Origin: an uncultured Alphaproteobacteria bacterium
GTDB taxonomy: Bacteria; Pseudomonadota; Alphaproteobacteria; Rs-D84
Assembly: GCA_947054455.1 (NCBI GenBank)
Contig: CAMRWN010000004.1
Coordinates: 11,867 to 75,866, forward strand
Direction: 5' to 3'
Length of the DNA stretch: 64,000 bases
How positions within the stretch are numbered: the first letter of the stretch is position 1; every line of letters begins with the position of its first letter. The notes beneath the pieces are model-generated. The model was given only the letters and a program-made list of their open reading frames with translations. It had not been told where the DNA came from and did no database searches. A program made the position numbers and the translations under genes. This document shows, one piece after another, positions 7,630-55,449 of the stretch.

Positions 7630-8927
7630 TCCGCGAATTCCCCGCGCAGGGACGCCTTGTTCGCCGCGGTTATCTTTATTTCGGCCAATTGGGGGGCGTC
7701 GGCGTTTGTGCGTTCTACAATACACTGCTGCATATAGGGGGTGCGGTAAACCAGATTCTGGCCGGTTTTGTCCGCGCCCTCGCACAGGCATGACATTGTG
7801 CGGCCCACGCATGACGTGTTAAATTCGCGCTGCAATTCGTTCAGGCGCGCGTCCAGTGCGGCCAGACGCGCAGCCTTTATATTGTCTGCAATCTGGTCCG
7901 GCATCAGCGCGGCGGCCGTGTGGGGGCGGGGCGAATATTTGAAAGAATAGGAATTGATATATTTCACGCGTTGTGCGATATCCATTGTTTTTTCAAAATC
8001 CGCATCCGTCTCGCCGGGGAATCCGACAATGAAATCGCTTGATATCTGGATGTCCGGACGGGCGGCCTTTAATTTGTCAACTATATCTATATATAGTTCC
8101 AACGAATAAGGACGGTTCATTCTTGTCAATACATCGGCGCTGCCGCTTTGTATAGGCATGTTTAAAAAAGGCAACAGTTTTGGTTCCGTGCGAAACATGT
8201 CTATTAAATCATCCGTCATTTCTGTTGGATAGCTGGATGTAAAGCGTATGCGTTTTACGGCGCTGATTTTGGCCGCCTGTGCGATTAATTCAGACAACCG
8301 GTGCGTTGCGCCGTCTTGGTCGATGTATTTGTATCCGTTCACGTTCTGGCCCAGAAAGCATATCTCTATCGCGCCGGTTTGCGCCGCGTGGCGAACGTCC
8401 GCCATTATGTCGGCCGGTGCGCGCGACAATTCACGGCCGCGGGTGTAGGGCACTATGCAATATGTGCAGCAATGATTACATCCTTCCTGTATGGGGATAT
8501 ATGCCACGGCAGGCGATGCGTCCATTTGCGGCATTTCATCAAATTTTTCCAATCCGCCCAAATCTATATTTAATAATTTTGTGTCCGGGTTGTTTAATAT
8601 TTCCGGCAGTTTGTGATAACTTTGCGGCCCCAGGACAAAATTAAGCTCTGGTATGCGGCGGAATGCGTCCGCGCCCGCTTCGCGTGCGACGCAGCCCACA
8701 ATTCCCATCAGGGCGTCGGGCTTTTTTGCGCGGCGGATTCGACCCAGGGCTGAAAATACCTTGTCGGTGGCCTTGGCGCGGACGGCGCATGTGTTCAGTA
8801 TGATGACGTCCGCATCGGCCGCATCGTGTGTTTCCTGCATGCCGCGCGCGGTCAACATGGCGGCGATTCGCTGGCCGTCATAGACGTTCATCTGGCAGCC
8901 GAATGTCTGGATAAAGAATTTTTTCAT
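7626..8927 (-). CDS. miaB: tRNA-i6A37 methylthiotransferase MiaB
   Basis: MKKFFIQTFGCQMNVYD start, radical-SAM CNHCCTYC motif and a TRAM-like C-terminus. Confidence 0.9.
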   Translation of the reverse strand: MKKFFIQTFGCQMNVYDGQRIAAMLTARGMQETHDAADADVIILNTCAVRAKATDKVFSALGRIRRAKKPDALMGIVGCVAREAGADAFRRIPELNFVLGPQSYHKLPEILNNPDTKLLNIDLGGLEKFDEMPQMDASPAVAYIPIQEGCNHCCTYCIVPYTRGRELSRAPADIMADVRHAAQTGAIEICFLGQNVNGYKYIDQDGATHRLSELIAQAAKISAVKRIRFTSSYPTEMTDDLIDMFRTEPKLLPFLNMPIQSGSADVLTRMNRPYSLELYIDIVDKLKAARPDIQISSDFIVGFPGETDADFEKTMDIAQRVKYINSYSFKYSPRPHTAAALMPDQIADNIKAARLAALDARLNELQREFNTSCVGRTMSCLCEGADKTGQNLVYRTPYMQQCIVERTNADAPQLAEIKITAANKASLRGEFAD

Positions 8928-8935
8928 GAATTTGT

Positions 8936-10459
8936 CTATGCCAGTTTTTGTTTTAATATTTCGTTAACCGCCGCAGGGTTTGCCTTGCCGCCGGTTGCCT
9001 TCATCACATTGCCGACAAAGAAGCCGAGCAGGCCTGTTTTACCGCTGCGGTACTGTTCGACCTGGGCCGGATTTTTTGCGATGACATCGTCAACGGCCGA
9101 TTCGATTGCGGATGTGTCCGTAATCTGTTCCATGCCGAATTTTTTTGCGATGTCGCGCGGGGTGCCGTTTTCACCGTCCAGCATCTTTATAAATATTTCC
9201 TTGGCCTGTTTGCCGTTGATTGATTTTTCCGAAATCATATCGACCAGTTCCGCCAAATCCGACGGTCTGATAATACGCGGCATGCCAGGCTCAGCTGTAT
9301 CCACAGCGTTTTTTACATCCCAGTTTTCGCCGTGCGCAAACAGTTCGGATATCATCCAGTTTGCGACAGCCTTGGCGCGTTCTTTTTTGCCGCCGACCGC
9401 CGCGTCGAACCATTTGGATATATCTGTGCTTTCCGTCAGGCGCGCGGCGTCATATTCGGCCAGTCCGAATTCGCCGATATAACGTGCGCGCGTTGCGGCG
9501 GGCAGTTCCGGCATCGTGCGGCGTATGCGTTCGATTGTTTCTTCGTCTACGACCAGTTCCAGCAAATCCGGATCCGGGAAATAGCGGTAGTCCAGGGCGT
9601 CCTCTTTGCTGCGCATGACGGATGTAGTGCCGTCGGCCTGGTTATAGCGCATGGTGTCTTGGGAAACGGTGCCGCCGTTTTCATAGATTTCAATCTGACG
9701 GCGCGCCTCGTATTCAATGGCGCTCTTGATAAATTTGAACGAGACCATGTTTTTTGTCTCTGTGCGGGTGCGGAATTTTGTGTCCCCCACCGGACGCACG
9801 GATACGTTTACGTCCGCGCGCATGGAACCTTCTTCCATGTTCGCCTTGGACACGCCCAGGGCGCGCGCAATCTCGCGGATTTCGCGCAGGTATCTTTCCG
9901 CTTCGTCCGGGGACGAGATGTATGAATTGTTTTCCGGGTTTTTAACATCCAGAAACGATACTATTTCCAACAGCGCCACGCCCGTGCGGTTATAGTCCGC
10001 AAACGATTTTGTCGGATGCATGTCGTGTTTCAGTTTTCCCGCGTCCTGTTCCAGGTGGGCGCGTTCAATCAATATCTTTTTAGGCTTGCCGTCGTCGCCC
10101 ATGATTTCAACGAATCCGCGTCCGACAATCGGCGGCTGGTCCGCGGGCTGGGTTATCTGGTATCCCTGGGGCAGGTCGGGATAGAAATACTGTTTACGTG
10201 CAAAACGGCTGCGGCGTGTGATGGCCGCGTTTATCCCCAGACCGAATTTAATTGCCTGTTCGATGCAGTATTCGTTCAGCACCGGCAGCATTCCCGGCAT
10301 GGCGGCGTCCACCATTGACACCTGGGTGTTCGGGGCGACGGTCGGATTGTAATCGGCGGATGCACCGCTGAACAATTTGGAATTGGACAGAACCTCTATA
10401 TGCGTTTCCAATCCAATAACCAATTCCCAATCACATGTTTTGCCTTTTATTGTAAACAT
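8936..10459 (-). CDS. gatB: Asp/Glu-tRNA amidotransferase subunit B
   Basis: WELVIGLETHIEV, DYNRTGVALLEIVS and a C-terminal GatB/YqeY domain. Confidence 0.95.
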   Translation of the reverse strand: MFTIKGKTCDWELVIGLETHIEVLSNSKLFSGASADYNPTVAPNTQVSMVDAAMPGMLPVLNEYCIEQAIKFGLGINAAITRRSRFARKQYFYPDLPQGYQITQPADQPPIVGRGFVEIMGDDGKPKKILIERAHLEQDAGKLKHDMHPTKSFADYNRTGVALLEIVSFLDVKNPENNSYISSPDEAERYLREIREIARALGVSKANMEEGSMRADVNVSVRPVGDTKFRTRTETKNMVSFKFIKSAIEYEARRQIEIYENGGTVSQDTMRYNQADGTTSVMRSKEDALDYRYFPDPDLLELVVDEETIERIRRTMPELPAATRARYIGEFGLAEYDAARLTESTDISKWFDAAVGGKKERAKAVANWMISELFAHGENWDVKNAVDTAEPGMPRIIRPSDLAELVDMISEKSINGKQAKEIFIKMLDGENGTPRDIAKKFGMEQITDTSAIESAVDDVIAKNPAQVEQYRSGKTGLLGFFVGNVMKATGGKANPAAVNEILKQKLA

Positions 10460-22666: not shown

Positions 22667-22768
22667 TCGGTTGAAATGGGGGGGCGGTGTTTGCGGCCCC
22701 CCCTATCTTTTAGCTTTATTTTTAAGCATTTTTATGATATAATGCCAATATAAAACAGGGTGAGTAGA

Positions 22769-23632
22769 ATGAAAAGTTTCGTATCTTTTTTTGCAATTTG
22801 CATGGTCGCCACATCGGCTGTCGCGCTGACACCCGCCGGGCAGGGCCGGCGCGCAATGTCCGCGCAGATGGGGGCGCCGCGTGCGACCGCATCCACGAAC
22901 CAGCTGGCGGCGATGGCGTCAATGTCTGTTTCCGCATCAAATCCCACAGCGTCGGTAAATATTAACAAGCCCAGCGTCCGTGTCGAAGATACGACTGCAA
23001 CGGTGCCTGCGCCCGTGGATAAACGTGAAAAGGAAAAGGCGGCGTGTCTGGGAAACAACATAGGAATCGGCAATACGTTCGTCTGGGCGTCGCGATATAG
23101 CAATGTTGCAAACTATGCATCTATGGTCGAAGACGTGGACAATCCTGAAAACAACACATGTTTTGTAAAGGTTGGCCTGAAATCCGACGATTCCAGAATC
23201 AATGTTGCGGACATACCGACCCAGTATTATGAAATGGGCCGCGACATCACGTGCGGCGCATGGGCGAACGAAGATATGCTGAGACAGCGTATTCTGGATG
23301 CTAAAAAGAAGGGACGCACGTGGGGTACCGTCGCGGGTGCCGTCGGTGGCGCGGGCCTGGGTGTCGGAATTATGGAACTGTTCGGAAACGCCGCAATCGG
23401 TGGCAAGGTTGAAGGTCAAAAGGCGCTGGATGAAAAAGCGCGGTTGCGTTCACAGTTGCTGGCGTTGAAAAAAGAGGGAAATCAGGAATATAAGTCTTTT
23501 ATGGGGCATCTGAAAACATTCGCCAAAGAATGCGACAGCGAAATATGGAATGAAGCTGGCGCCCAGAAGCCGGAAGAGTGCGGCAAGCTGGATTACAAGG
23601 CGTTGCTGGAGATAGACAAGGCAAGCATATAA
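22769..23632 (+). CDS. Secreted, C-terminally membrane-anchored protein related to the 26419/27880 family
   Basis: Signal peptide MKSFVSFFAICMVATSAVA (an alternative GTG start lies at 22760). The Gly-rich TM segment GRTWGTVAGAVGGAGLGVGI resembles GARLVSDSVAGVVLGTAGGLI in the shared module. An extended -10 TGATATAAT lies at 22735-22743. Confidence 0.6.
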   Translation: MKSFVSFFAICMVATSAVALTPAGQGRRAMSAQMGAPRATASTNQLAAMASMSVSASNPTASVNINKPSVRVEDTTATVPAPVDKREKEKAACLGNNIGIGNTFVWASRYSNVANYASMVEDVDNPENNTCFVKVGLKSDDSRINVADIPTQYYEMGRDITCGAWANEDMLRQRILDAKKKGRTWGTVAGAVGGAGLGVGIMELFGNAAIGGKVEGQKALDEKARLRSQLLALKKEGNQEYKSFMGHLKTFAKECDSEIWNEAGAQKPEECGKLDYKALLEIDKASI

Positions 23633-25085: not shown

Positions 25086-26366
25086 ATGCAGGCAGCGGCA
25101 ACAAAACAAATGACAAACTTGGACGCAATCAAGGGGGCCATTGCCGCAAAAATGGATTCTGCAAGCTTTACATCATGGATTGCCCCGCTGGCGTTTGATG
25201 TTGCCGACGGTGTGTTGCATCTGACTGCGCAGAATCAGTTTTCTGCAGACTTTATAACCAGTGTTCATTCCAATGCGTTGAATGCGGCGGCGGCCGAATT
25301 TGGTCTGGCGGTGCGCGTGGGTGTGCGCGGCGCGGCGGCGCCCGTCGCCCCGGTTGCGAACGATAACAACGCCCAGGCGTATGCGCCGGCGGCAGAAATC
25401 GTCGCGGCCCCGTCGGCCGGGTTTGATTCGTTTGTCGTCGCCGATGAAAACGCGTTTGTCGTATCTGCATGCAAGAAACTGGCGGCGGGCGCGGTTTCGT
25501 TCAGCCCACTGTTTATATACGGGCCGGCGGGCTGCGGGAAATCTTTGCTGGCGGAATGCATCCGCGGATGCGCCGCAGGCAGCACCGTAATGATGACCGG
25601 CGGCCAGTTTGTGGCGGAATTCACACGCAGCCTGCACAACCACAGCGTATTCGCATTCAAGGATTTCTGCCGCAACTGCGACACGTTCATCTTGGACGAC
25701 GTTCAGGCGTTGGCGGGCAAGCGTGCGACAACCGAAGAGTTTCTGCAGCTGGTCGTGGATTTGCGCGCGGCTGGAAAAAATATTGTACTGACTGCGAACG
25801 CGGCGCCGAACAATTTGTCCGGATTCGACCGCCGGATGCAGTCTCTGCTGGCGTCGGGATTGGTTGCGGACGTTGTTGCGCCGACGGCGAACGTGCGTCG
25901 CGTGATGTTGATGCGCGCCGGGGTTGGCGCGGATGTCGCGGCCGAAATCGCGGGACGCGTGGCGGCGGACGGACATATGATTGCGGGCGTGGCGACTAAA
26001 ATCAAAACGTATGCAGAACTGATGGGCGCGTCCGTTGACATGGATGTGGCGCAGCGTCTGCTGGCCGATACGTTGCAAAAGGCGAAAACACCGCTGGCGA
26101 TGGTTCGCAATATGTGTGAAAAACTGGGTGTCTCGTATGAGGCTGTATGCGGGGCGGGGCGCAGCCGCGGGTTGGTTATGGCGCGCCAGACAATGATGGC
26201 GGTTCTGAAGGGGGCGACAAATCTGTCCCTGGCGGAAATCGGTCGTTTCGTTGGCGACCGCAATCATGCGACGGTTCTGTATGCCATCAACCAGGTTGAG
26301 AAATTGAAAAAGACGGATTTGGTTTTGTCCGCCCAAATCGACCAGCTGATTGCAGAATGCAAATAA
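25086..26366 (+). CDS. dnaA: Chromosomal replication initiator DnaA
   Basis: AAA+ core (LFIYGPAGCGKSLL, FILDDVQ) and domain IV (RQTMMAVLKGATNLSLAEIGRFVGDRNHATVLYAINQV). Confidence 0.9.
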   Translation: MQAAATKQMTNLDAIKGAIAAKMDSASFTSWIAPLAFDVADGVLHLTAQNQFSADFITSVHSNALNAAAAEFGLAVRVGVRGAAAPVAPVANDNNAQAYAPAAEIVAAPSAGFDSFVVADENAFVVSACKKLAAGAVSFSPLFIYGPAGCGKSLLAECIRGCAAGSTVMMTGGQFVAEFTRSLHNHSVFAFKDFCRNCDTFILDDVQALAGKRATTEEFLQLVVDLRAAGKNIVLTANAAPNNLSGFDRRMQSLLASGLVADVVAPTANVRRVMLMRAGVGADVAAEIAGRVAADGHMIAGVATKIKTYAELMGASVDMDVAQRLLADTLQKAKTPLAMVRNMCEKLGVSYEAVCGAGRSRGLVMARQTMMAVLKGATNLSLAEIGRFVGDRNHATVLYAINQVEKLKKTDLVLSAQIDQLIAECK

Positions 26367-26384
26367 TGTTTTGTCTGAACGGAT

Positions 26385-26416
26385 AAAAAATCCCCCGTGT
26401 CTGGGGGATGTTTTTT
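26385..26416. terminator. Bidirectional terminator shared by dnaA and the Cys-rich gene
   Basis: ATCCCCC-GTGTCT-GGGGGAT, flanked by an A-run and a T-run. Confidence 0.65.
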
Positions 26417-26733
26417 CTTTACTGCACCCCTACATTGAACTGGTCTTTCCAGCCTGCGACCACCTGGCCGCCTACGACGCAATTAATATCCTCAAAACCG
26501 TCTTCGACCTGGTTCTTTTTTATCACGCTGCTGGTTATCAGACCACCCGCTGTTCCCAGAACAACACCGGCAACACTGTCCGATACCAGACGCGCACCGT
26601 TGAACTTGCCGTCTTCGTTCTTCCATTTAGATACCTTGAAGCCGTTTGACAGCTTCTCCAGCTCGGAATACGAATTCGATATACGACTCGCTATTTGACG
26701 ACGAGCGCCAGCGGATACTTTACTGCCAGAAGC
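26406..26733. repeat. Left copy of a perfect 328-bp inverted repeat
   Basis: Hand comparison shows it is the exact reverse complement of 28363-28690. It covers the last 105 codons plus 13 nt of 3' UTR. Confidence 0.95.
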
Positions 26734-27723
26734 ATCATCTGATGACGAAGGCGGCGGCGTAGGAGTTGTGCCTTCCTGCTGAAAATTATTGATTGTCAAA
26801 TTAATAAGTATCAATATCTGATTTACCTCGCTCTGGCTGACGTTTCCGTCTTTGCACAATTGCAATAGGCGCTGAATATGCACACGTGCATCCGCAGGCG
26901 TTTTTTCATTCGCCAACAGTCCGTTCAGCATAGCAATCATTTCCGGCGTACAGGTAAACGGTGCATTGCCTCCCTGGTCATCCGACGGCACCGCTATGCA
27001 AACACCACGGCCACCTTGGATTTCAAATTTCAGTCCGCCCGCGCAAACGCACGAATCGGATTTTGCGTCATATGTTGCAACCTCGCTGCTCAGATCACAA
27101 CAGGCCTTGCCGTTTGTTGTGGTGCGCAATTCCTTGCAAGTTTTTTTGACAGGTGCCGGTTCATCCTTCTTTTCGTCTTCTTTTTCTTTCACGGCGATGC
27201 TATGACAGCGCATTTGCAGTGTTTGGTTCACATATTCGCATTTTGCATTGAAAGCGGTTCCGTTTCTGTCGGTGTTTATATCAAACTGCAGACATTCGCT
27301 GGCGGTTAAAGCAGCCGGTTTGCCGTCTGCCCCCATATACCACTGATTTTCCTGGATATATGTTCCGCGGTACTGGCATGCGATAGACTGCTTTATCCAT
27401 CTGTCCGGCCCAACTGTAGAGCAGCGATATTGCACGGCGTATGGTATTACTTTTTCCTCAAAAACATGGTTTGGGCCCATTGTAATGACGTGATTGTTTT
27501 TGCAATGTTTGTTATCGCATTCAAAAACATTCCCGTTGACCGTACCGCCGTCTTTGCGGTTTTTTATTGAATTATAAGCTGTCAGCGTATCGTACAGGAA
27601 TTCATCATCTGACGCAGCCTGGTTGCCGTCAAAACTGACATGTGATTCTCCGCACATGGTTTCTGCCCCCCATGCGCCAGCCAGTGTCAGGAATAACGCG
27701 GGAACAATTAACAATTTATTCAT
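26419..27723 (-). CDS. Secreted cysteine-rich protein with the shared C-terminal anchor module (gene A)
   Basis: I place the start at MNKLLIVPALFLTLAGAWG (RBS GGAGAGG); an alternative ATG lies at 27735. The ~330-aa Cys-rich ectodomain is followed by a Pro/Ser linker and then a C-terminal 105 aa identical to those of gene B. Confidence 0.75.
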   Translation of the reverse strand: MNKLLIVPALFLTLAGAWGAETMCGESHVSFDGNQAASDDEFLYDTLTAYNSIKNRKDGGTVNGNVFECDNKHCKNNHVITMGPNHVFEEKVIPYAVQYRCSTVGPDRWIKQSIACQYRGTYIQENQWYMGADGKPAALTASECLQFDINTDRNGTAFNAKCEYVNQTLQMRCHSIAVKEKEDEKKDEPAPVKKTCKELRTTTNGKACCDLSSEVATYDAKSDSCVCAGGLKFEIQGGRGVCIAVPSDDQGGNAPFTCTPEMIAMLNGLLANEKTPADARVHIQRLLQLCKDGNVSQSEVNQILILINLTINNFQQEGTTPTPPPSSSDDASGSKVSAGARRQIASRISNSYSELEKLSNGFKVSKWKNEDGKFNGARLVSDSVAGVVLGTAGGLITSSVIKKNQVEDGFEDINCVVGGQVVAGWKDQFNVGVQ

Positions 27724-27740
27724 GGGCCTCTCCATATATA

Positions 27741-27764
27741 TAATCCAAACGTTGGTTTGGATTA
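27741..27764. promoter_or_regulatory. Perfect palindromic site TAATCCAAAC-GTTG-GTTTGGATTA
   Basis: 10-bp perfect arms and a 4-bp core. It lies 17 nt upstream of the gene A start codon on the minus strand. Confidence 0.85.
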
Positions 27765-27782
27765 GGCAATTAATGCCATTTA

Positions 27783-27811
27783 ATTATATGTGATTTTATC
27801 ATATTTTTCAG
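27783..27811 (-). promoter_or_regulatory. Candidate sigma70 promoter facing gene A
   Basis: The minus strand reads CTGAAA-N17-TATAAT. The -35 lies inside the conserved AATTCCTGAAAA box. The best match facing gene B is much weaker (TTTAAT-N17-TATTTT). Confidence 0.4.
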
Positions 27812-27839
27812 GAATTTAAAACACCAAAATCATGTCTGT

Positions 27840-27860
27840 TCCAAACCAACGTTTGGATTA
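27840..27860. promoter_or_regulatory. Partner palindromic site TCCAAAC-CAAC-GTTTGGATTA
   Basis: It is a 21-nt exact reverse complement of 27744-27764. The core CAAC is the reverse complement of GTTG. It lies 19 nt upstream of the gene B ATG. Confidence 0.75.
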
Positions 27861-27879
27861 GGCAAATACGGGAGGCAAA

Positions 27880-28677
27880 ATGAAAAAATTAATACACGCT
27901 ATAACCGCAATCGTTTTTGCTGCGTCCGCAGCCCATGCGGATACAAGCTGCTTTAAAAAAAGTCAATCCAACAGCCGTGATTTTGATTATCACGTCTTGT
28001 TCCTGCATGACAAAGATGAAATAGAAGACTGGCAGTGCCTGACTTCATTAAAAGCCGAATTGAACAGAATCGAGGTCGGAAACTGTCAGCTTATCCTGCT
28101 TATCGGCAGTGCGGATACCAAAGGCAGTCAAAGTTATAACACGGACTTGGCCAAACGCCGCGTTCAATATGTTGCCGGCTTATTCAATGAACCCCTGCAA
28201 CCAAAACTGCTGTTGTATACCGGCGGCGATTCGAATGCATATAACTATACCCCCGACGAGACATCATATCCAGACGAACGTGCCGTCCGTATAATGGTTA
28301 AAACATCCAATGTATGCAATATTGAACCAGAACAAGAAGACAACCAGGAGCCTGAAAATAAAGCTTCTGGCAGTAAAGTATCCGCTGGCGCTCGTCGTCA
28401 AATAGCGAGTCGTATATCGAATTCGTATTCCGAGCTGGAGAAGCTGTCAAACGGCTTCAAGGTATCTAAATGGAAGAACGAAGACGGCAAGTTCAACGGT
28501 GCGCGTCTGGTATCGGACAGTGTTGCCGGTGTTGTTCTGGGAACAGCGGGTGGTCTGATAACCAGCAGCGTGATAAAAAAGAACCAGGTCGAAGACGGTT
28601 TTGAGGATATTAATTGCGTCGTAGGCGGCCAGGTGGTCGCAGGCTGGAAAGACCAGTTCAATGTAGGGGTGCAGTAA
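27880..28677 (+). CDS. Secreted OmpA_C-like (peptidoglycan-binding) protein with the shared C-terminal anchor module (gene B)
   Basis: Signal peptide MKKLIHAITAIVFAASAAHA. OmpA-C-like block LIGSADTKGSQSYNTDLAKRRVQYVAGLF...ERAVRIMV. The C-terminal 105 aa are identical to those of gene A. Confidence 0.75.
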   Translation: MKKLIHAITAIVFAASAAHADTSCFKKSQSNSRDFDYHVLFLHDKDEIEDWQCLTSLKAELNRIEVGNCQLILLIGSADTKGSQSYNTDLAKRRVQYVAGLFNEPLQPKLLLYTGGDSNAYNYTPDETSYPDERAVRIMVKTSNVCNIEPEQEDNQEPENKASGSKVSAGARRQIASRISNSYSELEKLSNGFKVSKWKNEDGKFNGARLVSDSVAGVVLGTAGGLITSSVIKKNQVEDGFEDINCVVGGQVVAGWKDQFNVGVQ

Positions 28678-28690
28678 AGAAAAAACATCC
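28363..28690. repeat. Right copy of the perfect 328-bp inverted repeat
   Basis: It is the exact reverse complement of 26406-26733. The repeat ends where the two different terminator hairpins begin. Confidence 0.95.
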
Positions 28691-28712
28691 GCATTTGCGG
28701 ATGTTTTTATTT
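28680..28712. terminator. Bidirectional terminator
   Basis: CATCCGC-ATTT-GCGGATG, with an A-run before and a T-run after. Confidence 0.65.
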
Positions 28713-28722
28713 GGATTGTGTA

Positions 28723-29214
28723 TTATTTTTGCTTGCTGGCTTCAAGATACTTTTCAATCAGTGCCTTGCGCATATTAATCTGACGCTCCAAATCGCGGCG
28801 TGATGCGTGGTTCAGATGCTTTTCATAATCATCATTGATATGGGGCATGACATATGCCTCTGTCGGGAACAGCATTAAAACTGGCTTGTCGTTTTCCTTG
28901 TCTTTGTATATTACAACGGTGCGGGCCAGTTTTTCAGTCATGTACGGTGCCAGTGCGCTGTATTGCACAACCATGTTATAAGCACATGGGTTCGGGAATT
29001 CATGGCAGCTCATCCAGCCTGAATTTTTGTTTTCGTCCGATTCTTTTTTATTCTTGGCGATAACCGGCATTGGCATCATCTTGCATCCACCAAACAGGGA
29101 CAAATCGCACAGCAGATTATCCAGTTTTAAAATATATGTGTCTTTCTTTTTATGTGTCGGCCCCATTACGCGCTGGGCGGCCTTTTTAAATTGCATATTT
29201 TCTTTCTTGGACAT
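28723..29214 (-). CDS. Hypothetical protein
   Basis: I place the start at MSKKENMQF, which has a good RBS (AAGGAGCGAATAATG). It looks AT-rich by eye and has no motif I recognise. Confidence 0.55.
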   Translation of the reverse strand: MSKKENMQFKKAAQRVMGPTHKKKDTYILKLDNLLCDLSLFGGCKMMPMPVIAKNKKESDENKNSGWMSCHEFPNPCAYNMVVQYSALAPYMTEKLARTVVIYKDKENDKPVLMLFPTEAYVMPHINDDYEKHLNHASRRDLERQINMRKALIEKYLEASKQK

Positions 29215-29265
29215 TATTCGCTCCTTAAAATTCTTAATCATATTATGGTACAAAATATAAATAAG

Positions 29266-29517
29266 TCAAGCCTTATTAAGAGTGTGCGCGGTTATTACAG
29301 TATTGGATGAGGCATTAATCGTGATAATGCAGTGTTTTGTTTTTACGTAAAAATTTTTACCACGTCTGGAAATTTCCGAATTTTGCAGTTGTTTTCGGCA
29401 AAATTCTATCACATCGGTTGCGTCGGTTAAATTCAAATTCCGCCGAAGCCGCATTTCACCCATGGGTGTTGTATGCAGTTTTTCGGACGGAACAGTATTT
29501 TCAGCCGTATCGCACAT
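29266..29517 (-). CDS. Small protein, DUF3781-like
   Basis: GKNFYVKTKHCIITINASSNTVITAH resembles the DUF3781 signature as I recall it. Its ATG overlaps the parE TAA (TAATG). Confidence 0.5.
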   Translation of the reverse strand: MCDTAENTVPSEKLHTTPMGEMRLRRNLNLTDATDVIEFCRKQLQNSEISRRGKNFYVKTKHCIITINASSNTVITAHTLNKA

Positions 29518-31496
29518 TATACAAACAAATCTTTCACAAACTGGGCATGTTCGGTGATAAAGCGGAATCGAAACTCTGGCTTTTTTCCCATCAGTTCGGA
29601 AACGATTGTGCGTGTTTTTTCCGTATCTTCGGCGCCTTCGTCGGTGCGCGGGGGCAGTTCGACGCGTATCAGCCGCCGTGTCTTTGGGGACATGGTTGTT
29701 TCCTTTAGCTGGTTCGGCATCATTTCACCCAATCCCTTGAATCGAGATATTTCGACCTTTTTATTTTTGTATTTGCCGGCCTTCAGGGATTCCAGTTCTT
29801 CGTCGGTGTCGACATAAATCGATTCGGTTCCGCATGTCAGCTTGTAGAGTGGGGGACATGACAAATACAGATGGCCGCCGTAAATCAGCTGTGGCATGTG
29901 ATGATAAAAGAATGCCATCAGCAGCGATGCAATATGGCTGCCGTCGACGTCGGCATCGGTCATGACGATGATTTTTTCATAGCGCAGCTTGTCCTCGTTC
30001 CAGTCCCGGGCGGTTCCGGCGCCGATGATGTCTATCAGTTCGTTAAGCTCCTTGTTGGCGCCAAATCTTTCGTCGGAATTAGATATCACGTTCAAAACCT
30101 TGCCGCGCAGGGGCATTATTGCCTGGGTCGCGCGGTCGCGCGCCTGTTTGGCGGTACCGCCGGCCGATTCACCCTCGACTATGAACAATTCGGTGCCTTC
30201 TATTCCGTGCTTTGAGCAATCGGCCAGTTTCGCCGGCATGCGAATTCGTTTGGTCGGGGTTTTGCGTGCGACGTCTTTTACCTGTTTTGTTTTGATGCGC
30301 GCGTTCGCCAGGTTTATTACAAATTCCAGCAATGCGTTCGCCGTCTTTGGGTCGGATGCCAGAAATATCTCCCACGGGTCGCGCAGCGCGTTTTCGGTAT
30401 AGCGGGCAACCTCTGGATTGGATAATTTTTCCTTGGTCTGGCCCAGAAACTGCGGCGTTTTATAGAACACCGAGACAATCGATGCGACCGAATCAAACAC
30501 GTCGTCGCCGATGATTGACGCAGCGGCCTTGTTTCCAACCTTGTCGCCGTATGCCTTGATGCCCTTGGTTATTGCAGACTTGAACCCGGTTTCATGTGTT
30601 CCGCCGTCCGTTGTTGCGATGGTGTTGCAGTATGAAGAAAAGAATCCGTCGTCCGATGCGGCGCCGTTTTCGTCCGTCAGGAACGTCAGCGCCCATTCAA
30701 CGCGGCCGCTGTCGTCTGGGAAATCGACCGACCCGCTGAAGATGCGGGGCAGGATTCGCGGCTTGTCATTGGTTTTTTCCGCCAGAAAGTCCGCCACGCC
30801 GTTGGGATAGAAAAATGTTGTTTCCGCCGGTATTTTCATATCTTCGGTCAGCAGGGCCGGATTGCAGTGCCATTCGATTTTTACGCCGCGCGACAAAAAC
30901 GCCTTGGCACGGGCCATGCGATAGATTTTTACCGGTTTGAACAGCGCGGCCTCGCCGAATATCTGGTCGTCGATTGTGAATCTGATTTTTGTCCCGTGAT
31001 TGCGTGTTGCGTCGCCGCGGGTCATGGCGCTGGTCGGTTTGCCGCGTGAAAAGGTTTGGCGCCATTCGTATCCGTCGCGGGATATGATGACAATCATTTC
31101 CGCACTCAGCGCGTTTACAACCGCACTGCCTACGCCGTGCAGGCCGCCGCTGGTCTTGTATACGTTATTGTTGAACTTGCCGCCCGAATGCAGGGTGGTC
31201 AATATCACCTCCAGCGCGGATTTGCCGGGGTATTTTGGATGCTCGTCCACGGGGATGCCGCGGCCGTCGTCCGTTATCTCTATTGTTTTTCCGTCAATCA
31301 GGTTAACCGTTATTTTCTTGGCGAAACCGGCCACCGCCTCGTCTATGGAATTGTCCATGATTTCCACCGGCAGGTGGTGCCACGCCTTTTCATCGGTGCC
31401 GCCGATGTACATTCCCGGCCGCAGGCGGACGGGTTCCAATCCTTCTAGTACCTGGATGTCGGAAGCGTCATAAGTATGTGTATTTTTTTCTGTCAT
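29517..31496 (-). CDS. parE: DNA topoisomerase IV subunit B
   Basis: GHKL ATPase plus TOPRIM (IQVLEGLEPVRLRPGMYIGGT, ELFIVEGESAGG, IMTDADVDGSHI). The ~660-aa length without the GyrB insertion favours ParE. I place the start at MTEKNTH. Confidence 0.85.
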   Translation of the reverse strand: MTEKNTHTYDASDIQVLEGLEPVRLRPGMYIGGTDEKAWHHLPVEIMDNSIDEAVAGFAKKITVNLIDGKTIEITDDGRGIPVDEHPKYPGKSALEVILTTLHSGGKFNNNVYKTSGGLHGVGSAVVNALSAEMIVIISRDGYEWRQTFSRGKPTSAMTRGDATRNHGTKIRFTIDDQIFGEAALFKPVKIYRMARAKAFLSRGVKIEWHCNPALLTEDMKIPAETTFFYPNGVADFLAEKTNDKPRILPRIFSGSVDFPDDSGRVEWALTFLTDENGAASDDGFFSSYCNTIATTDGGTHETGFKSAITKGIKAYGDKVGNKAAASIIGDDVFDSVASIVSVFYKTPQFLGQTKEKLSNPEVARYTENALRDPWEIFLASDPKTANALLEFVINLANARIKTKQVKDVARKTPTKRIRMPAKLADCSKHGIEGTELFIVEGESAGGTAKQARDRATQAIMPLRGKVLNVISNSDERFGANKELNELIDIIGAGTARDWNEDKLRYEKIIVMTDADVDGSHIASLLMAFFYHHMPQLIYGGHLYLSCPPLYKLTCGTESIYVDTDEELESLKAGKYKNKKVEISRFKGLGEMMPNQLKETTMSPKTRRLIRVELPPRTDEGAEDTEKTRTIVSELMGKKPEFRFRFITEHAQFVKDLFV

Positions 31497-31687
31497 AGCG
31501 GTACTATTAATATAATAAAATTTGATTTTTCGCAAGTGAAAGAATTCATGGAAACGACGCCGGGCGCCAACTTTGACGGTTTGTTTTCCCAGAAACGTGT
31601 TTTATGCTTTTGAAGGGTGTTATTGCACTTGATTTTTTGTATAATGTGCCTATATATTCGACATAGATAAATTACGGACGTAAAAAA

Positions 31688-48847: not shown

Positions 48848-48978
48848 TTGTTTTTCCCTTTGTTTTATAAGGAAAATTTACCATGTTTTGCAAAAAGTTG
48901 TCAATATGTGTTTTTATGTTTTGGAAAATATTCGTTTTTGTGATATCTTATTATGAAAAAGTAGGGGGATATTTCAAG

Positions 48979-49710
48979 ATGAAAAAAATTGTTTCTTTGG
49001 CTGTTTTGTGTGCAATGACTATGCCGGTGTTTGCGGCGCCCGCCCGTCCCAGCTATATAAAGCGCGACGCGGACGGCGGATACAACATAACTTATAGTTA
49101 TAATGACAAGGCCAAGACCGGATGGTACGTGGGCGGTCGCGCGGAACTGAGCTTTTTGAACTGGAAAAACAAATATTCGTCTGATGACCCCAAACTTGGC
49201 GGTGCCAGCGACAAGTATTCGTTTGAACCGGTCTTTGGCGGTGGTGTGTTCGCGGGCCGCACGTTTGGGTATTTTTGGCGCGCTGAATTAGAGGCGGGAT
49301 ATCTGGGCTATTTTGATGACAAGGGCGACGGCGCGGAATTTTCGCTGTCGGTTCCGTATGTTATGGCAAACGGATATTATGACTTTGACAACGGTTTTTA
49401 TGCCGGGGCCGGGGTGGGTGTCGCGATACCGACAACAGAAATGGACGCATATGTTATTCAGGATAACGGAATGCTGATAAAGATGGAGGGCGACAACACC
49501 AAAAAGACGGCGGTGTCCCCGATGGGCGGCGTGTATTTGGGTTGGTCGCGCAAATTGGACGACAATCTGGTTTTTGATTTGCGTTATCGTCTGGCGGGCC
49601 TGACAGGTACAAAACACACGCGTCGTCTGAACAACGGTTATGATTATGAAAACAAAATCGGCCTGATTCTGGACAATTCGCTGTCCATGGGGCTGAGATA
49701 TGAATTTTAG
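48979..49710 (+). CDS. Outer-membrane beta-barrel protein (paralogue type of 4089)
   Basis: Signal MKKIVSLAVLCAMTMPVFA, alternating strands and a C-terminal LRYEF. Confidence 0.6.
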   Translation: MKKIVSLAVLCAMTMPVFAAPARPSYIKRDADGGYNITYSYNDKAKTGWYVGGRAELSFLNWKNKYSSDDPKLGGASDKYSFEPVFGGGVFAGRTFGYFWRAELEAGYLGYFDDKGDGAEFSLSVPYVMANGYYDFDNGFYAGAGVGVAIPTTEMDAYVIQDNGMLIKMEGDNTKKTAVSPMGGVYLGWSRKLDDNLVFDLRYRLAGLTGTKHTRRLNNGYDYENKIGLILDNSLSMGLRYEF

Positions 49711-49772
49711 CGCAATAATGGGTTGTATTGAATACGTCAAATATGGCATCATTGACTAGGTAGAGAGAATAA

Positions 49773-51407
49773 ATGAAACATAGTGTGTGGATTTCAACAA
49801 TAGCGGTTGTTTGTGTTATTTGCGCATCGGTGTCCGATGCGAATGCGGCGGCGTCCGTGCGTTCGCTGGGGGGGGCTGGCACATACAGCAGCGCGTCCGC
49901 CGCGTCTTCGGCCGCGTCGGCAAAGCCCAGTGCCGCAATCAATGCGGTGCGCGGTGGTTCCATGCGTGTTTCGCCGTCGGCTTCGGCGCGGCCCGGTACA
50001 CCGGTAAAGACGACGGGAACCCCGATAACAACGCAGCGTTTGTCCATAGGTAAACATTTGGGTGGTGCGACATCGGTCAGCGGCGGTTCGTCGACGCGTC
50101 CCGGCACGAGTGGTGGTGGAACCAGTGGCGGCGGCACGCTGGATCCGGGGGCTACGGCCGATTTGGAACGCCAGATTGACGATTTGTACAGCCAGGTGGA
50201 TAAACTGGGCAAGGCCGACGAAGACCTGGCCGCGGCGCTGGATGGAAAGCAGGCGGCGCTGAATTCCACCGACGGACTGATTGTTATTGAAGACGACGGC
50301 AACATGTCGCTGGACGTCGAAGGATTAAAGGCGGCGATGGATGTCGCAGTCGGCCAGGATGGCCGCGAGGTTGTAATCGGCACCAATGCCGTCGGTGATA
50401 TTGTGTGGCAGTACGAAGGCGACGGCCCCGATGAATGGCAGTTGCTGATTGCAAAACAAGATTTGGTTGGTCCCCAGGGCCCCCAGGGTGAAAAGGGTGA
50501 GCCGGGAATCGCGGCGGATATGGACTTGTATTCCACAACCGCGGAAATGAATGACGCCATTGCGTCGGCGATAACCGCGGCATCAGCCGGATGGGCCACT
50601 AAGGAGGATTTGGAAGCCAAGGCCGAGAAAACCGAACTGGCGGGGTTGGCAACCAAGGAAGAGGTCAAGACTTCGTTTGATGCCATTTCACAGGATATAA
50701 ACACCGCGCTGGACGATGTATACACCAAGGCCGAAGTGGACGAGAAGGTTGCGGATGTTGTCGCCGGCGACATGAGCGAGGCGTTGAAAGCCTATGCCAC
50801 GACAGAACAGTTGAATGCCGGTCTGGCCGGCAAGGCTTCAACGTCTGATTTGACGAAATTGGAAGCTACGGTCATATCGGTCGGTAATGCGGCCGACGGC
50901 GCCAAGGCCGCGGCCGATGCGGCGGCCAAGTCCGCAGAGGAGGCAAAGACCGCGCTGACTGGCAAGGCGGACAAATCTGAGATACCGACCGTTCCGACCA
51001 AGGTCAGCGAGTTTCAAAATGATGCCGGATATCTGACGGCGCACCAGTCGCTGGCGGGATTGGCGACCAAGGAAGAACTGGCCGCGTACGCGACGACCGA
51101 CGCGGTTAACAAGACGGTCAATGATGTAAAAACCGAACTGCAGGAAGAAATTCAGAACGTTGTTGCCGGCGACGTCAGCCAGGAAATCAACAACGCTGTG
51201 GCGCAACAGGTTCAGAATATCAAAATTACCAATACCCAGATTGCGGCGGATGCGGAAATCGCGCGTTCGAAGCTGGCGGCTGATGTCCGTGCATCTTTGG
51301 ATGCCGCGGATTCCATGATAACGGCACCGCAAACCGGCGACTTTGTTCTGTTTGTCAGCGATGGTGAAAAGAGCTGGGCCAAGGTCGTTGATGCAAACGG
51401 ACAATAG
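49773..51407 (+). CDS. Secreted fibre protein 1 (collagen-like triplets plus coiled-coil, tail-fibre-like)
   Basis: Signal peptide, a Ser/Ala/Gly-rich region, GPQGPQGEKGEPG (50469-50507), repeated LAGLATKEE units and the tail GDFVLFVSDGEKSWAKVV. Confidence 0.7.
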   Translation: MKHSVWISTIAVVCVICASVSDANAAASVRSLGGAGTYSSASAASSAASAKPSAAINAVRGGSMRVSPSASARPGTPVKTTGTPITTQRLSIGKHLGGATSVSGGSSTRPGTSGGGTSGGGTLDPGATADLERQIDDLYSQVDKLGKADEDLAAALDGKQAALNSTDGLIVIEDDGNMSLDVEGLKAAMDVAVGQDGREVVIGTNAVGDIVWQYEGDGPDEWQLLIAKQDLVGPQGPQGEKGEPGIAADMDLYSTTAEMNDAIASAITAASAGWATKEDLEAKAEKTELAGLATKEEVKTSFDAISQDINTALDDVYTKAEVDEKVADVVAGDMSEALKAYATTEQLNAGLAGKASTSDLTKLEATVISVGNAADGAKAAADAAAKSAEEAKTALTGKADKSEIPTVPTKVSEFQNDAGYLTAHQSLAGLATKEELAAYATTDAVNKTVNDVKTELQEEIQNVVAGDVSQEINNAVAQQVQNIKITNTQIAADAEIARSKLAADVRASLDAADSMITAPQTGDFVLFVSDGEKSWAKVVDANGQ

Positions 51408-51473
51408 GAATGAAACAATTTCGCTGGCTTTCTTATAAAAAGCGGTGATAAAGGCAAGAAAAGGAAGTATGAA

Positions 51474-52364
51474 ATGAAAATAAAAAATATTGCTTTTTCC
51501 GGGGTGGCGGCGGCCATATTCGGCATGAGTGCGGCACATGCGGCGCCTGTGGAAATCGCAAGCCGGGCATATGTGGACAATGTCAGGGACGCGACATTGC
51601 AAACAGTGTCCAATACATATATCACCAGCGAGGATGCCGCGAACACATACGTTAACAACACGCAGCTGGGCGACCAGATTACAAACAATATAACCAACGC
51701 GCTGCAGGATGCAGATTCCGCAATTGCCAAGGAATTGGCGACCAAGGCGGACGCGTCGGATGTAAATACGCTGCGCACGGATGTAAACGGATTGAAAACG
51801 GCGGTCGGCGACGAGACGTCGGGTCTGACCAAGGCAACGGCGGACGCGGCGGCAACGGCGGCGGCGGCCGACAAAAAGGCGTCCGATGCAGCGGCCCAGG
51901 CCACAAAAAATGCCACTGATTTGACGGCGCTGGACGTTCGGGTTACGAAAAATACAAATGATATCGCTGCTATAAACAGCGGCATCGACAAAACTGTTGC
52001 CGATGCGATTGCGGGCGCCTTGACCGGCGAGGGTGAAATCAAGGAATCCATTGATGCCGCAATTGATAGCGCGATTGGGGATTTGCCGATTGGTACACTG
52101 ACAACGGATGTTGCAAACTTAAAGACAACCGTTGGCGATGACACGACCGGTCTGGTAAAGGATGTTGCCGACAATTCGGCTGCAATTGAAACATTAAACG
52201 GTGATGAAAATACAGCAGGCAGTGTTGCAAACACTGTCAAATCCTTGGCGGTGCCACAGCCGACAGGTGATTGCGCAGCACAATCAGGACGTTGCGTATT
52301 GTCTTATGACACGACCGCAAAGGGCGTTGTCTGGATGGATGTGACGTCGCCGCTTGGTGAATAA
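51474..52364 (+). CDS. Secreted fibre protein 2 (tail-fibre-like)
   Basis: Signal ...SAAHA|APVEIASRAYVD, repeated KADxSDV/LNGxxxTAGSV units and the C-terminal CAAQSGRCVLSYDTTAKGVVWMDV. Confidence 0.7.
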   Translation: MKIKNIAFSGVAAAIFGMSAAHAAPVEIASRAYVDNVRDATLQTVSNTYITSEDAANTYVNNTQLGDQITNNITNALQDADSAIAKELATKADASDVNTLRTDVNGLKTAVGDETSGLTKATADAAATAAAADKKASDAAAQATKNATDLTALDVRVTKNTNDIAAINSGIDKTVADAIAGALTGEGEIKESIDAAIDSAIGDLPIGTLTTDVANLKTTVGDDTTGLVKDVADNSAAIETLNGDENTAGSVANTVKSLAVPQPTGDCAAQSGRCVLSYDTTAKGVVWMDVTSPLGE

Positions 52365-52392
52365 AACAAATAAAAAGTAAAGGAAGAAAATT

Positions 52393-53307
52393 ATGAAAAA
52401 ATTAACTGCTGGTATTTTCACTGTCATGCTGGGCATTGTCGGCATGGGCGCGGCGAACGCGGAAATTGCGTCCAAGGCGTATGTTGACCAAACAACAGGC
52501 TCCGTTGAGACAAAGGTAGAAAGCCTGACGCAAATTGTGAATGCAAATGCCGGTACCGCCGCAGACAACAAAGAAGCGATAGAAACATTGACCAGCCAAC
52601 TGGAGGGCAAGGCCGATACATCCGCGTTGGATACGCTGGCGGGGCGCGTAGATGCAAACACCGCTTCGATTACAACGCTGAACGGTTCCGGCGAGGGCAG
52701 TGTTGCAAAGAAAATTACGGATGCGTTGACACCCTATGCCAAGACCGCCGATGTTGCGACCCAGATTCAGGGTGCGACCGCCGGATTGTTGAGTGCGACA
52801 GACGCCGATGCGGCATATGCACCGATTGCGACCAAGGACACTGCGGATGCCAACAAGGCCGCTATTGAAAAATTGAACGGCACGGCTGAAACAGCGGGCA
52901 GTATCTTGAACACTTTGGCGCCTTATGCCAAAACGGCTGATGTAAACGCATCTTTGGCCGACGTAAATACCGAAGTGGGCAAGAAAGTTTCCACGGATAC
53001 ATATAATACACAAATCGGTGTGGTTAACCCAACGAATATGGGTGCGTCCGCCAGTGCGACAACGGTTGTTGCCGGTATCAAGGAAGCAAACGAGAATGTT
53101 AAAAGGAACGAACAGAATATTACTGCCAACCGCGAGGCGATTGATAAAAGCTTAGCCGAATTGGGTACGGATGTTGAAAGCAGACTGCCGCGTCCGACCG
53201 ACGCATGTGCGGATCCAAAGAACAAGTGTGTTCTGGTGTCTGCGGGCAAAGGTAATTATACATGGGAAGTTATAGAACGCGGTACCAGCGAAACTTCTGG
53301 AAACTAG
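52393..53307 (+). CDS. Secreted fibre protein 3 (tail-fibre-like)
   Basis: Signal ...GAANA|EIASKAYVDQ, with the same repeat grammar and the C-terminal CADPKNKCVLVSAGKGNYTWEVI. Confidence 0.7.
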   Translation: MKKLTAGIFTVMLGIVGMGAANAEIASKAYVDQTTGSVETKVESLTQIVNANAGTAADNKEAIETLTSQLEGKADTSALDTLAGRVDANTASITTLNGSGEGSVAKKITDALTPYAKTADVATQIQGATAGLLSATDADAAYAPIATKDTADANKAAIEKLNGTAETAGSILNTLAPYAKTADVNASLADVNTEVGKKVSTDTYNTQIGVVNPTNMGASASATTVVAGIKEANENVKRNEQNITANREAIDKSLAELGTDVESRLPRPTDACADPKNKCVLVSAGKGNYTWEVIERGTSETSGN

Positions 53308-53318
53308 GCACGGGTTGT

Positions 53319-53348
53319 GCATGGATTGGCGTCAATGCCAATCCATGC
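53319..53348. other. Perfect 12-bp stem hairpin between fibre genes 3 and 4
   Basis: GCATGGATTGGC-GTCAAT-GCCAATCCATGC. No T-run follows. Confidence 0.6.
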
Positions 53349-53419
53349 GCCCGACGCGTGGACATACACAGACATTGCGTAAATATTTATAAGACATATA
53401 CGAAAGAGCAGAACTGATT

Positions 53420-54730: not shown

Positions 54731-54732
54731 GA

Positions 54733-54766
54733 AATCCCGCCGCAGGGCGGGAATCTTTTTTATTTT
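54733..54766. terminator. Terminator after the fibre array
   Basis: TCCCGCC-GCAG-GGCGGGA plus a T-run. Confidence 0.65.
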
Positions 54767-54794
54767 CGTCCAAGAATTTTATCGGATGTCGTTT

Positions 54795-55367
54795 TTACAG
54801 CGCCAGCATTAATATAATGCCCAGTCCCGCCGCGATAATTGCGGCCAGTGTCAACGGCCAGAAATATTTTTTTACAATCGTGTTTGCAGCATCCTGGAAC
54901 CGCCACAGCAAAAATCCGACAACTGCAAACCGGCCCGTGCGGAATATCGCCGACACGCCCAGAAACAGCAGCGCCGGAAATCCCAGGAATCCCGCGCACA
55001 TCGCCATCAGCTTGTACGGAATGGGGGTTATCGCGGTCAGTACGATTATAAACACACCATGGCGCAGGAACATTGCCTGGGCCATTTCAAATTTTTCCAT
55101 CGTGGCAAAATTCTGGACCAGCCATATGCCGACCGAATCGAACAGCCACAATCCGATTATGTATGCAATCGCACCCCCCACCAGCGATCCCAATGCCGCC
55201 GCCGCCGTGATTGGAACCGCGCGTCGGCGGTTGGCGACAATGGGCGGGGTCATGAATACTTCGGGTGGGATGAACAGGAATATCGATTCGCATACCGTCA
55301 GCAGGAATACAATCCACGTATATGCCGGATGTTCGGCTTTCTTTAAGATACTATCAACCAGTTTCAT
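54795..55367 (-). CDS. DedA/YqaA family membrane protein
   Basis: 190 aa with ESIFLFIPPEVFMTPP and multiple TM segments. Confidence 0.7.
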   Translation of the reverse strand: MKLVDSILKKAEHPAYTWIVFLLTVCESIFLFIPPEVFMTPPIVANRRRAVPITAAAALGSLVGGAIAYIIGLWLFDSVGIWLVQNFATMEKFEMAQAMFLRHGVFIIVLTAITPIPYKLMAMCAGFLGFPALLFLGVSAIFRTGRFAVVGFLLWRFQDAANTIVKKYFWPLTLAAIIAAGLGIILMLAL

Positions 55368-55449
55368 TTTTCCCCCGAATTAAAATTTTTCTTGATTGTA
55401 ATTGAATTTCTAATAATTTACAATTGAATATATATTTTCGGGGATAAAA

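Follow-up and report, generated by a model that had tools for sequence, protein, structure and literature searches.

Between the dnaA and parE genes of an uncultured alphaproteobacterium of the order Rs-D84 (GenBank assembly GCA_947054455.1), two divergently transcribed genes, here called gene A and gene B, end in the same C-terminal module, which is encoded on the two arms of a perfect inverted repeat. We examined this locus in a window of 64,000 nucleotides (nt) of contig CAMRWN010000004.1 (positions 11,867 to 75,866 of the forward strand; all coordinates below are window positions unless a locus is named) and in 80 retrieved loci, designated by L numbers, that come mostly from metagenome-assembled genomes (MAGs) labelled Alphaproteobacteria or Candidatus Enterousia. 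The sequence comparisons make it probable that gene conversion keeps the two module copies identical, and they show that the ectodomains placed in front of the module are exchanged. The central features of the locus are as follows.

26390 to 26409, both strands: bidirectional intrinsic terminator for dnaA (plus) and gene A (minus), from a two-strand terminator scan; fold z-scores −3.6 and −3.8.
26406 to 26733, minus strand: left arm of the inverted repeat, comprising the final 104 codons of gene A, its stop codon and 13 nt; exact match to the right arm.
26419 to 27723, minus strand: gene A, an open reading frame (ORF) of 434 amino acids (aa), database gene call P0052; 438 aa from a start at 27735.
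27724 to 27879, no strand: divergent promoter region of 156 nt, 34% GC, with palindromes at 27741-27768 and 27833-27860 just upstream of both ribosome-binding sites.
27880 to 28677, plus strand: gene B, an ORF of 265 aa with a signal peptide, a predicted OmpA/Pal-like domain at about residues 25-145, a linker and the C-terminal module.
28363 to 28690, plus strand: right arm of the inverted repeat, comprising the final 104 codons of gene B, its stop codon and 13 nt; crossed by contig L082.
28681 to 28708, both strands: bidirectional intrinsic terminator for gene B (plus) and a 176-aa ORF (minus); z-scores −5.2 and −8.1.

Positions 26406-26733 are the exact reverse complement of 28363-28690 over 328 nt with 0 mismatches, as the first-pass annotation of this DNA had reported. 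A repeat search stretches the arms to 333 nt at 99% identity, and past the 328-nt limits the identity is at once that of background (100, 100, 100, 100, 100, then 60, 45, 53% in 60-nt bins). It is the sole repeat longer than 80 nt across the 64-kb window. Each arm holds 104 sense codons, and not the 105 first counted, followed by the stop codon and 13 nt, and these form the 3′ ends of the two genes. The outer edges were said to fall at two different hairpins; they do lie at the terminators, but the arms enter the stems by 4-5 nt on both the left and the right, and the two stems have common outer CATCC...GGATG pairs. Between the arms lie 1,629 bp that contain the variable coding part and the ribosome-binding site of each gene, along with promoter-like boxes for both directions. 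Overall, the variable locus has a GC content of 34-47%, compared with 53-58% in its flanks.

The proteins encoded by the two genes differ completely upstream of the module: we detected no similarity between the N-terminal regions of gene A and gene B, in agreement with the initial description of these domains as unrelated. For gene A, the start at 27723 is more probably correct than the one at 27735, because of a GGAGAGG ribosome-binding site and the agreement with gene call P0052. The gene A product contains a signal peptide, 16-17 cysteines, a β-rich Cys-containing domain, a small Cys-rich domain, a helical domain, a coiled helix, and the C-terminal module. An AlphaFold2 (AF2) model places the β-rich domain at residues 23-178 with a predicted local distance difference test score (pLDDT) of 81-98. 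Comparison of the predicted gene A domains with the PDB gave no match, the top entries being fibronectin type I modules at a non-significant E of 0.05. Ectodomains of the gene A type recur in many related loci.

The N-terminal domain of gene B is predicted with a pLDDT of 80-96 over residues 25-145 and adopts an OmpA/Pal-like peptidoglycan-binding fold in this model. A Foldseek search of the PDB returned 51 matches at E <= 1e-3, and the 50 listed are all peptidoglycan-binding domains of the OmpA/Pal/MotB type, led by Pal (4g4w, E 6e-6, TM 0.68). Residues N87, L90, R94, and R134, which are typical of Pal/OmpA-type domains, are invariant in 41 homologs, so that the resemblance to Pal/OmpA_C consists of the fold together with the N-x2-L-x3-R and R motifs. 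At the sequence level, gene B scores 16.3 bits against Pfam OmpA, under the cut-off of 27.2, and its matches to NCBIfam OmpA-type models (E 5e-5 and weaker, best 23.3 bits) fall under cut-offs of 125 or more; three gene B homologs have a precomputed PF00691 match. The domain order is unusual, since OmpA, Pal, and MotB have an N-terminal membrane part, whereas in gene B the binding domain is N-terminal and the putative anchor module C-terminal. OmpA-like ectodomains of the gene B type fill the single dnaA-parE slot in another species (L086/L087), and in a third species they are found at a DsbA-rpsF locus. In L083 (7064-8828), from another species, an OmpA-like module gene of this type lies directly downstream of a gene for a DsbA-like thioredoxin, a neighbor that fits an oxidizing compartment for the often Cys-rich module proteins.

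The shared module spans ~75-105 aa. It opens with a coiled helix that differs from species to species, continues with a Gly-rich hydrophobic helix (SVAGVVLGTAGGLITSSVI) and KK, and closes with a conserved 30-aa tail. Its highly conserved stretch reads W-K-x3-G-K-F-N-x-A-R-L-x-S-D-S-x-A-G-V-V-L-G-T-A-G-G-L-I-T-S, with the Gly-rich hydrophobic part and then KKNQ, and the conserved 30-aa end reads G-F-E-D-I-x-C-x-V-G-G-Q-x-V-A-x-W-x-D-x-F-x-V-G-I-Q. Searches with the module against Pfam, NCBIfam, and PDB sequences gave nothing significant. The hydrophobic stretch has a 19-aa Kyte-Doolittle mean of 1.66, borderline for a membrane helix, and the module is most likely a membrane anchor or an oligomerization stalk. 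We also considered a known sorting signal (PEP-CTERM or LPXTG) or a glycine-zipper helix and rejected both, as there is no profile match and a conserved tail of ~30 aa follows the KK.

A profile search with the module recovered 953 representatives of clusters made at 50% identity, and 935 had E < 1e-10. In all of the 150 best matches of the 953, which range from 113 to 941 aa, the module occupies the extreme C-terminus. At least 301 module-coding stretches were found when one genome per species was scanned, with one to a few family copies per genome. The family, defined by a signal peptide, an exchangeable ectodomain, and the constant C-terminal module, appears to be specific to Candidatus Enterousia/order Rs-D84. 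This lineage comprises widespread uncultured Alphaproteobacteria of animal guts; their genomes are smaller than 1 Mb, and they probably rely on other cells (PMC12306168). The same paper contains no description of the module family. Loci L080 and L081 (OZ246409.1, 716,531 bp) and protein P0166 are labelled 'Muribaculaceae'. L081 has the dprA-dnaA-module gene-parE-dnaJ order typical of Rs-D84, and L080 and P0166 encode the module; these labels are probably wrong.

To place the window's repeat among related genomes, we compared the 60 loci that contain both dnaA and parE. They preserve the order plsY-ORF290-dprA-dnaA-[module gene(s)]-ORF176-parE-dnaJ, where ORF290 and ORF176 are ORFs of 290 and 176 aa. 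Most hold a single module gene co-oriented with dnaA (52/60); seven have a head-to-head pair, in which the dnaA-side copy is the reversed one, and one has a tandem pair. The closest relative of the window's species among the fetched loci shares 83% aa identity over four flanking proteins. Counting a second locus upstream of dprA, eleven genomes have head-to-head pairs, each with its own C-terminal inverted repeat; the repeats measure 211-769 nt and are 89-100% identical.

Window: repeat of 328 nt, 100%.
L001: repeat of 286 nt, 98.6%; second block of 188 nt at 91.5%.
L008: repeat of 211 nt, 100%; the dnaA-side gene is a 68-aa remnant.
L015: repeat of 769 nt, 89%.
L043: repeat of 260 nt, 93%.
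L054: repeat of ~570 nt, 95%.
L063: repeat of 328 nt, 94.5%.
L088: repeat of 337 nt, 99%; dnaA-side gene of 126 aa.
L010+L022: head-to-head pair in one MAG, its contigs split between both genes.
L057: repeat of 430 nt, 92.8%; second locus, upstream of dprA.
L047+L058: head-to-head pair; second locus, upstream of dprA.

Within eight of these pairs, a 219-nt core of the module is 92-100% identical, compared with a mean of 71.5% (95th percentile 79%) between loci. Tandem or dispersed module copies within one genome reach 73-91%. At conserved residues, a fraction of 0.78-1.00 of the codons is identical within pairs, compared with 0.48 between loci, which indicates that the similarity resides in the DNA and does not stem from selection on the protein. 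The blocks of ~100% identity cover the final 240-420 nt, reach past the interspecies-conserved core into the variable coiled-helix part, and decay upstream; in L001 and L015, there is a second, separated block of high identity. Genomes bearing a pair are scattered over the DnaA/ParE/DprA/DnaJ tree. This pattern is the signature of repeated homogenization of inverted copies by gene conversion, accompanied by gains and losses of the second gene. The first-pass annotation had read the zero divergence of the arms as a very recent duplication or ongoing gene conversion, and both the contrast with the ~71% seen between species, synonymous sites included, and the behavior of the related head-to-head loci, which are near-identical within pairs and lack ordinary divergence between the two modules, bear this out.

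Among these explanations, recombinational homogenization of the constant module in the two head-to-head paralogs is the one we regard as probable. The module copies lie inverted and 1.6 kb apart, an arrangement in which homologous recombination would repeatedly copy one onto the other, holding the two DNA-identical while the module drifts to ~71% between species. An exchange resolved as a crossover would invert the 1,629-bp segment, and the constant module, together with a constant promoter/signal-peptide end, would also serve as homology handles through which ectodomain cassettes are replaced between strains and species. We infer that conversion is ongoing in the window genome and was not a one-off event.

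The alternative that one inverted duplication or gene fusion took place very recently, so that the identity simply reflects youth and no conversion continues, is less economical and in our view unlikely. Zero differences over 328 nt are compatible with a very young duplicate, and the scattered distribution of pairs on the species tree is also compatible with repeated independent gains, as is the sister species L059, which lacks the second gene present in L054. Such an origin, however, needs a very recent event in each of eleven genomes, and in those genomes tandem or dispersed copies are by now only 73-91% identical. The gradients and separate blocks in L015, L054, and L001, where a 100% core sits inside an older similarity of 67-98%, look like conversion tracts laid over an older duplicate. 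Moreover, the pair on the dprA side is older than the split between L057 and L047+L058, and its arms are still 97% identical.

Several observations weigh against homogenization and its extensions. Short-read assemblers may erase a few true differences between arms, so that '100%' could be ~99%. Only four sites group the modules by genome in the comparison of L057 with L047+L058 described below, and conversion since that split is weakly documented. An exact look-up with the 434- and 438-aa forms of gene A found no second strain of the window's species. RecA dependence of conversion and inversion is presumed, and recA was not found in the 64-kb window or in the fetched loci, which span parts of genomes; RuvX and DprA are encoded in the window and RecO on a related contig. 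As to the module, the anchor role draws its support from hydropathy, at the borderline value given above, and AF2 monomer models of both genes have low confidence over this region.

The dnaA-side gene is reduced in two of the pairs. In L088 (6001-6381), it consists of a signal peptide and the module alone (126 aa), a form present on 7 contigs, and in L008 (8549-8755) it is a 68-aa remnant without a start codon. From these forms, the module may be functional by itself, and the second gene copy may decay by deletion.

We next considered inversion of the segment between the arms, which the first-pass annotation had proposed. Evidence for such an event comes from the second family locus, in the head-to-head pairs upstream of dprA of two Hadza-gut MAGs, L057 and L047+L058, whose flanks are 94-96% identical. 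The comparison covers L057 7048-10321 against L047 1-1744 plus L058 1-1718; the termini of contigs L047 and L058 share an overlap between the two genes. Thirty-three informative sites pair the 514-aa gene of L057 with the 557-aa gene of L047 and the 532-aa gene of L057 with the 494-aa gene of L058, 4 sites group the genes by genome, and 0 support the third grouping. The sites indicating orthology lie in the upstream part and those grouping by genome in the core, where the four sequences are 93-98% alike. The orthologs face opposite flanks: the 'MRLF...' gene adjoins dprA in L057 and is distal to it in the L047+L058 MAG. The segment has thus inverted at least once since the two diverged. The longest exact stretches shared by the arms are 113 nt in L057 and 83 nt in L047+L058, so single ordinary reads can bridge these stretches.

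For the window's own species, a single isomer is seen. An exact look-up of gene B found one additional short contig only, L082, with the same isomer as the window, and a scan of JGI metagenomes with the gene B N-terminal domain found no relative. The gene A ectodomain type (C-x-x-x-V-S-F-D-G-N-Q...D-D-E-F) runs in the direction of dnaA in single-gene species and is reversed in the window, an orientation that points the same way as an inversion. As had been anticipated, inversion would leave both proteins unaltered, because both promoters and the variable 5′ parts lie inside the segment and the arms encode identical peptides; nor would it change which promoter drives which gene. Its effect would be limited to swapping the flanks and the direction of each gene relative to replication.

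An assembly artefact, in which a module copy was duplicated, diverged copies were collapsed, or the orientation of the middle segment was set arbitrarily, had been raised at the outset and now appears very improbable. A 328-nt exact repeat does exceed a typical short read, leaving the orientation of the middle segment to paired ends; many family members lie on short, broken metagenome contigs, and in two MAGs the assembly is interrupted between the paired genes. However, genes A and B are complete and in frame, and their N-terminal domains, promoters, and terminators differ. Contig L082 (1,143 nt), from a separate ENA assembly, is 100% identical to 27800-28942 and joins B-specific sequence, the right arm, and the parE-side flank. 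The same architecture also appears in independent assemblies that keep 1-11% differences between the arms, with exact shared stretches down to 65-134 nt.

The intergenic region of the pair contains a conserved arrangement of its own. The palindromes TAATCCAAAC-GTTG-GTTTGGATTA and TCCAAAC-CAAC-GTTTGGA lie directly upstream of the ribosome-binding sites of genes A and B (27741-27768 and 27833-27860) and are predicted to fold into hairpins, and promoter-like -10 boxes occur on both strands between the genes. The motif AAAC-N4-GTTT, often extended by TTMGGCA, is ~19-fold enriched upstream of module genes (24 observed, 0.9 expected). Paired palindromes are spaced by 96-97 nt in the window, L001, L057, and L058 and by 100 nt in L088, in distant species, and their stem sequences differ between species; outside the window, the pairs lie at L001 8972-9095, L057 8655-8763, L058 65-173, and L088 5857-5986. 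Palindromes are also found upstream of single module genes, and the region matches no Rfam family. Since the orientation of the loop relative to the gene is not conserved, we favor operator sites for a dimeric DNA-binding protein that would co-regulate both genes over an RNA element.

In distant species, the conserved palindromes bracket the promoter core at a fixed spacing of 96-97 nt, which might also suggest a recombinase-driven switch of the inverton or shufflon kind. Such a switch would change which gene is expressed by flipping either the whole segment or just the 64 nt of promoter core that separate the palindromes. We give this reading hardly any weight. The arms are 328 nt of coding sequence, inversion between them alters neither a coding sequence nor the link between promoter and gene, and promoter-like boxes are present for both directions. 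The palindromes likewise stand upstream of single genes, and a 64-nt core is very short for site-specific inversion. No recombinase gene lies near the locus or within 30 kb of it; the only integrase-like ORF (58158-59177, plus strand, 339 aa) is 30 kb off, matches the arm-DNA-binding and central domains without a match to the catalytic domain, and may be a decayed phage or island integrase. Silent-cassette antigenic variation as in pilE/pilS, vlsE, or msp2 was rejected, because the window contains just two module copies and a fetched locus at most three, every one a full gene with a signal peptide and, in those examined, an upstream region of its own, and a sap-type expression switch fails because inversion leaves the expressed gene unaltered, with both promoter-like sites inside the segment.

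Comparisons of closely related loci indicate that the ectodomains themselves are replaced. In two pairs of loci, L026/L036 (9216-9653 versus 9087-9657) and L023/L028 (8946-9998 versus 8850-10007), the flanks are 97-98% identical, while the ectodomains cannot be aligned. Identity ends where the signal-peptide codons do, 40-80 nt from the start of the gene, and resumes either ~480 nt into the gene, within the ectodomain part (L026/L036), or at the module (L023/L028). The converse is seen in L054/L059 (8566-9237 versus 8827-9498), where identity is 94% over one ectodomain and the region upstream of it but only 79% over the dnaA-side flank, which suggests transfer of the ectodomain between species. 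The position of the identity breaks, together with this converse case, shows that ectodomains are swapped between strains and species through the constant ends of the gene.

Elements of this arrangement are known from other systems. In the sap locus of Campylobacter fetus, which encodes surface-layer proteins, RecA-dependent inversion occurs between conserved segments of oppositely oriented sapA homologs; the conserved part is 5′, and as the invertible segment contains just one promoter, inversion switches the protein made. The likeness lies in homologous, rather than site-specific, recombination between oppositely oriented surface-protein genes. The window is nevertheless a mirror image, with the conserved part at the 3′ end, promoters that travel with their own genes, and products that inversion leaves unaffected. 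The tufA/tufB genes of Salmonella and Escherichia coli are inversely oriented duplicates that undergo RecA-dependent gene conversion and can mediate chromosomal inversion; unlike the window's pair, they are whole housekeeping genes, hundreds of kb apart, with no variable domain.

The closest bacterial parallel is provided by babA/babB and homA/homB of Helicobacter pylori, envelope paralogs that pair a variable part facing the host with a constant 3′ segment (PMC2795765). As summarized in a passage of that paper citing Pride & Blaser 2002 and Santoyo & Romero 2005, intragenomic gene conversion makes the 3′ segments of one strain group together, rather than those of one gene. The H. pylori paralogs are dispersed and their constant part is a β-barrel, whereas the window genes are adjacent and divergent and their constant parts enclose both promoters as an inverted repeat; the window's constant part is short, unannotated, and probably a helical anchor module, and there is no sequence homology between the two. 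For a homogenized inverted repeat that re-inverts the DNA between its arms, the closest parallel is the 'flip/flop' region of Saccharomyces chromosome XIV, where paralogous genes in inverted repeat are continually homogenized and so stay nearly identical in each species, the intervening region has been re-inverted repeatedly, and evolution between species is fast (PMC9731477). That system is eukaryotic, with 4-kb repeats around a 24-kb segment and whole genes repeated, as opposed to the C-terminal module only in the window.

The recombination mechanism is textbook and should not surprise a specialist; what is new is an undescribed hypervariable protein family with a cassette-like locus beside dnaA. 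Wholesale replacement of ectodomains is the pattern expected of cell-surface molecules under diversifying selection, and the module genes are therefore good initial candidates for a role in attachment or recognition in Enterousia/Rs-D84. On the practical side, the repeat breaks, or can misorient, metagenome assemblies at the dnaA-parE locus.

A more speculative extension, which we put forward only tentatively and think rather doubtful, is that the head-to-head pair is more than a recombination by-product and acts as an exchange platform for an envelope complex. The module would form an oligomerizing membrane stalk, and A and B, both expressed from a single divergent promoter under control of the palindromes, would assemble through their identical modules into a hetero-oligomer, B binding peptidoglycan and A serving as a hypervariable partner-binder. 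If so, selection for compatible stalks would favor homogenization, and through the constant 5′ and 3′ ends these genome-reduced, partner-dependent bacteria would be able to install foreign ectodomains and thereby change attachment, with cassette uptake perhaps proceeding via the neighboring DprA and pilus-secretin genes.

The remaining features around the pair are conserved flanks and smaller neighboring genes.

25086 to 26366, plus strand: dnaA, the conserved left flank, an ORF; the order dprA-dnaA-module gene-parE-dnaJ is as in the 60 related loci.
28723 to 29253, minus strand: 176-aa ORF encoding a basic protein, convergent with the module gene; no Pfam or NCBIfam match.
29266 to 29517, minus strand: DUF3781 protein of 83 aa (Pfam E 7.7e-23), a variable passenger between the module gene and parE.
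29517 to 31535, minus strand: parE/gyrB-type topoisomerase subunit, the conserved right flank, an ORF; ~90% aa identity across related loci.

Homologs of the 176-aa ORF (40-49% identity) are present in 48 fetched loci, the window and L082 included, mostly downstream of the module gene, to which this ORF might be linked. The DUF3781 gene occurs in 4 of the fetched loci only. The entire 64-kb window has a positive GC skew, which probably marks the plus strand as the leading one; there is no switch at dnaA, and on this ground we ruled out that the repeat flanks a replication origin near this gene.

An Rfam scan of 26200-29000 returned sub-threshold matches only, on the terminator hairpins, and a search of a plasmid collection gave no match. 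Further upstream, between plsY and dprA, ORF290 (22760-23632, plus strand) encodes a secreted protein of 290 aa that contains a hydrophobic, Gly-rich stretch and gives a weak Pfam glycine-zipper match (E 0.34). It has homologs in 67 fetched loci (52-63% identity among the matches listed), and a profile comparison of the module with this Gly-rich ORF showed no relation. At 48883-55383 (plus strand), five consecutive ORFs without a significant Pfam match contain internal direct repeats (53760/54120 at 91% and 50985/53879 at 78%), and the local AT skew of this block is positive, unlike that of the remainder of the window.

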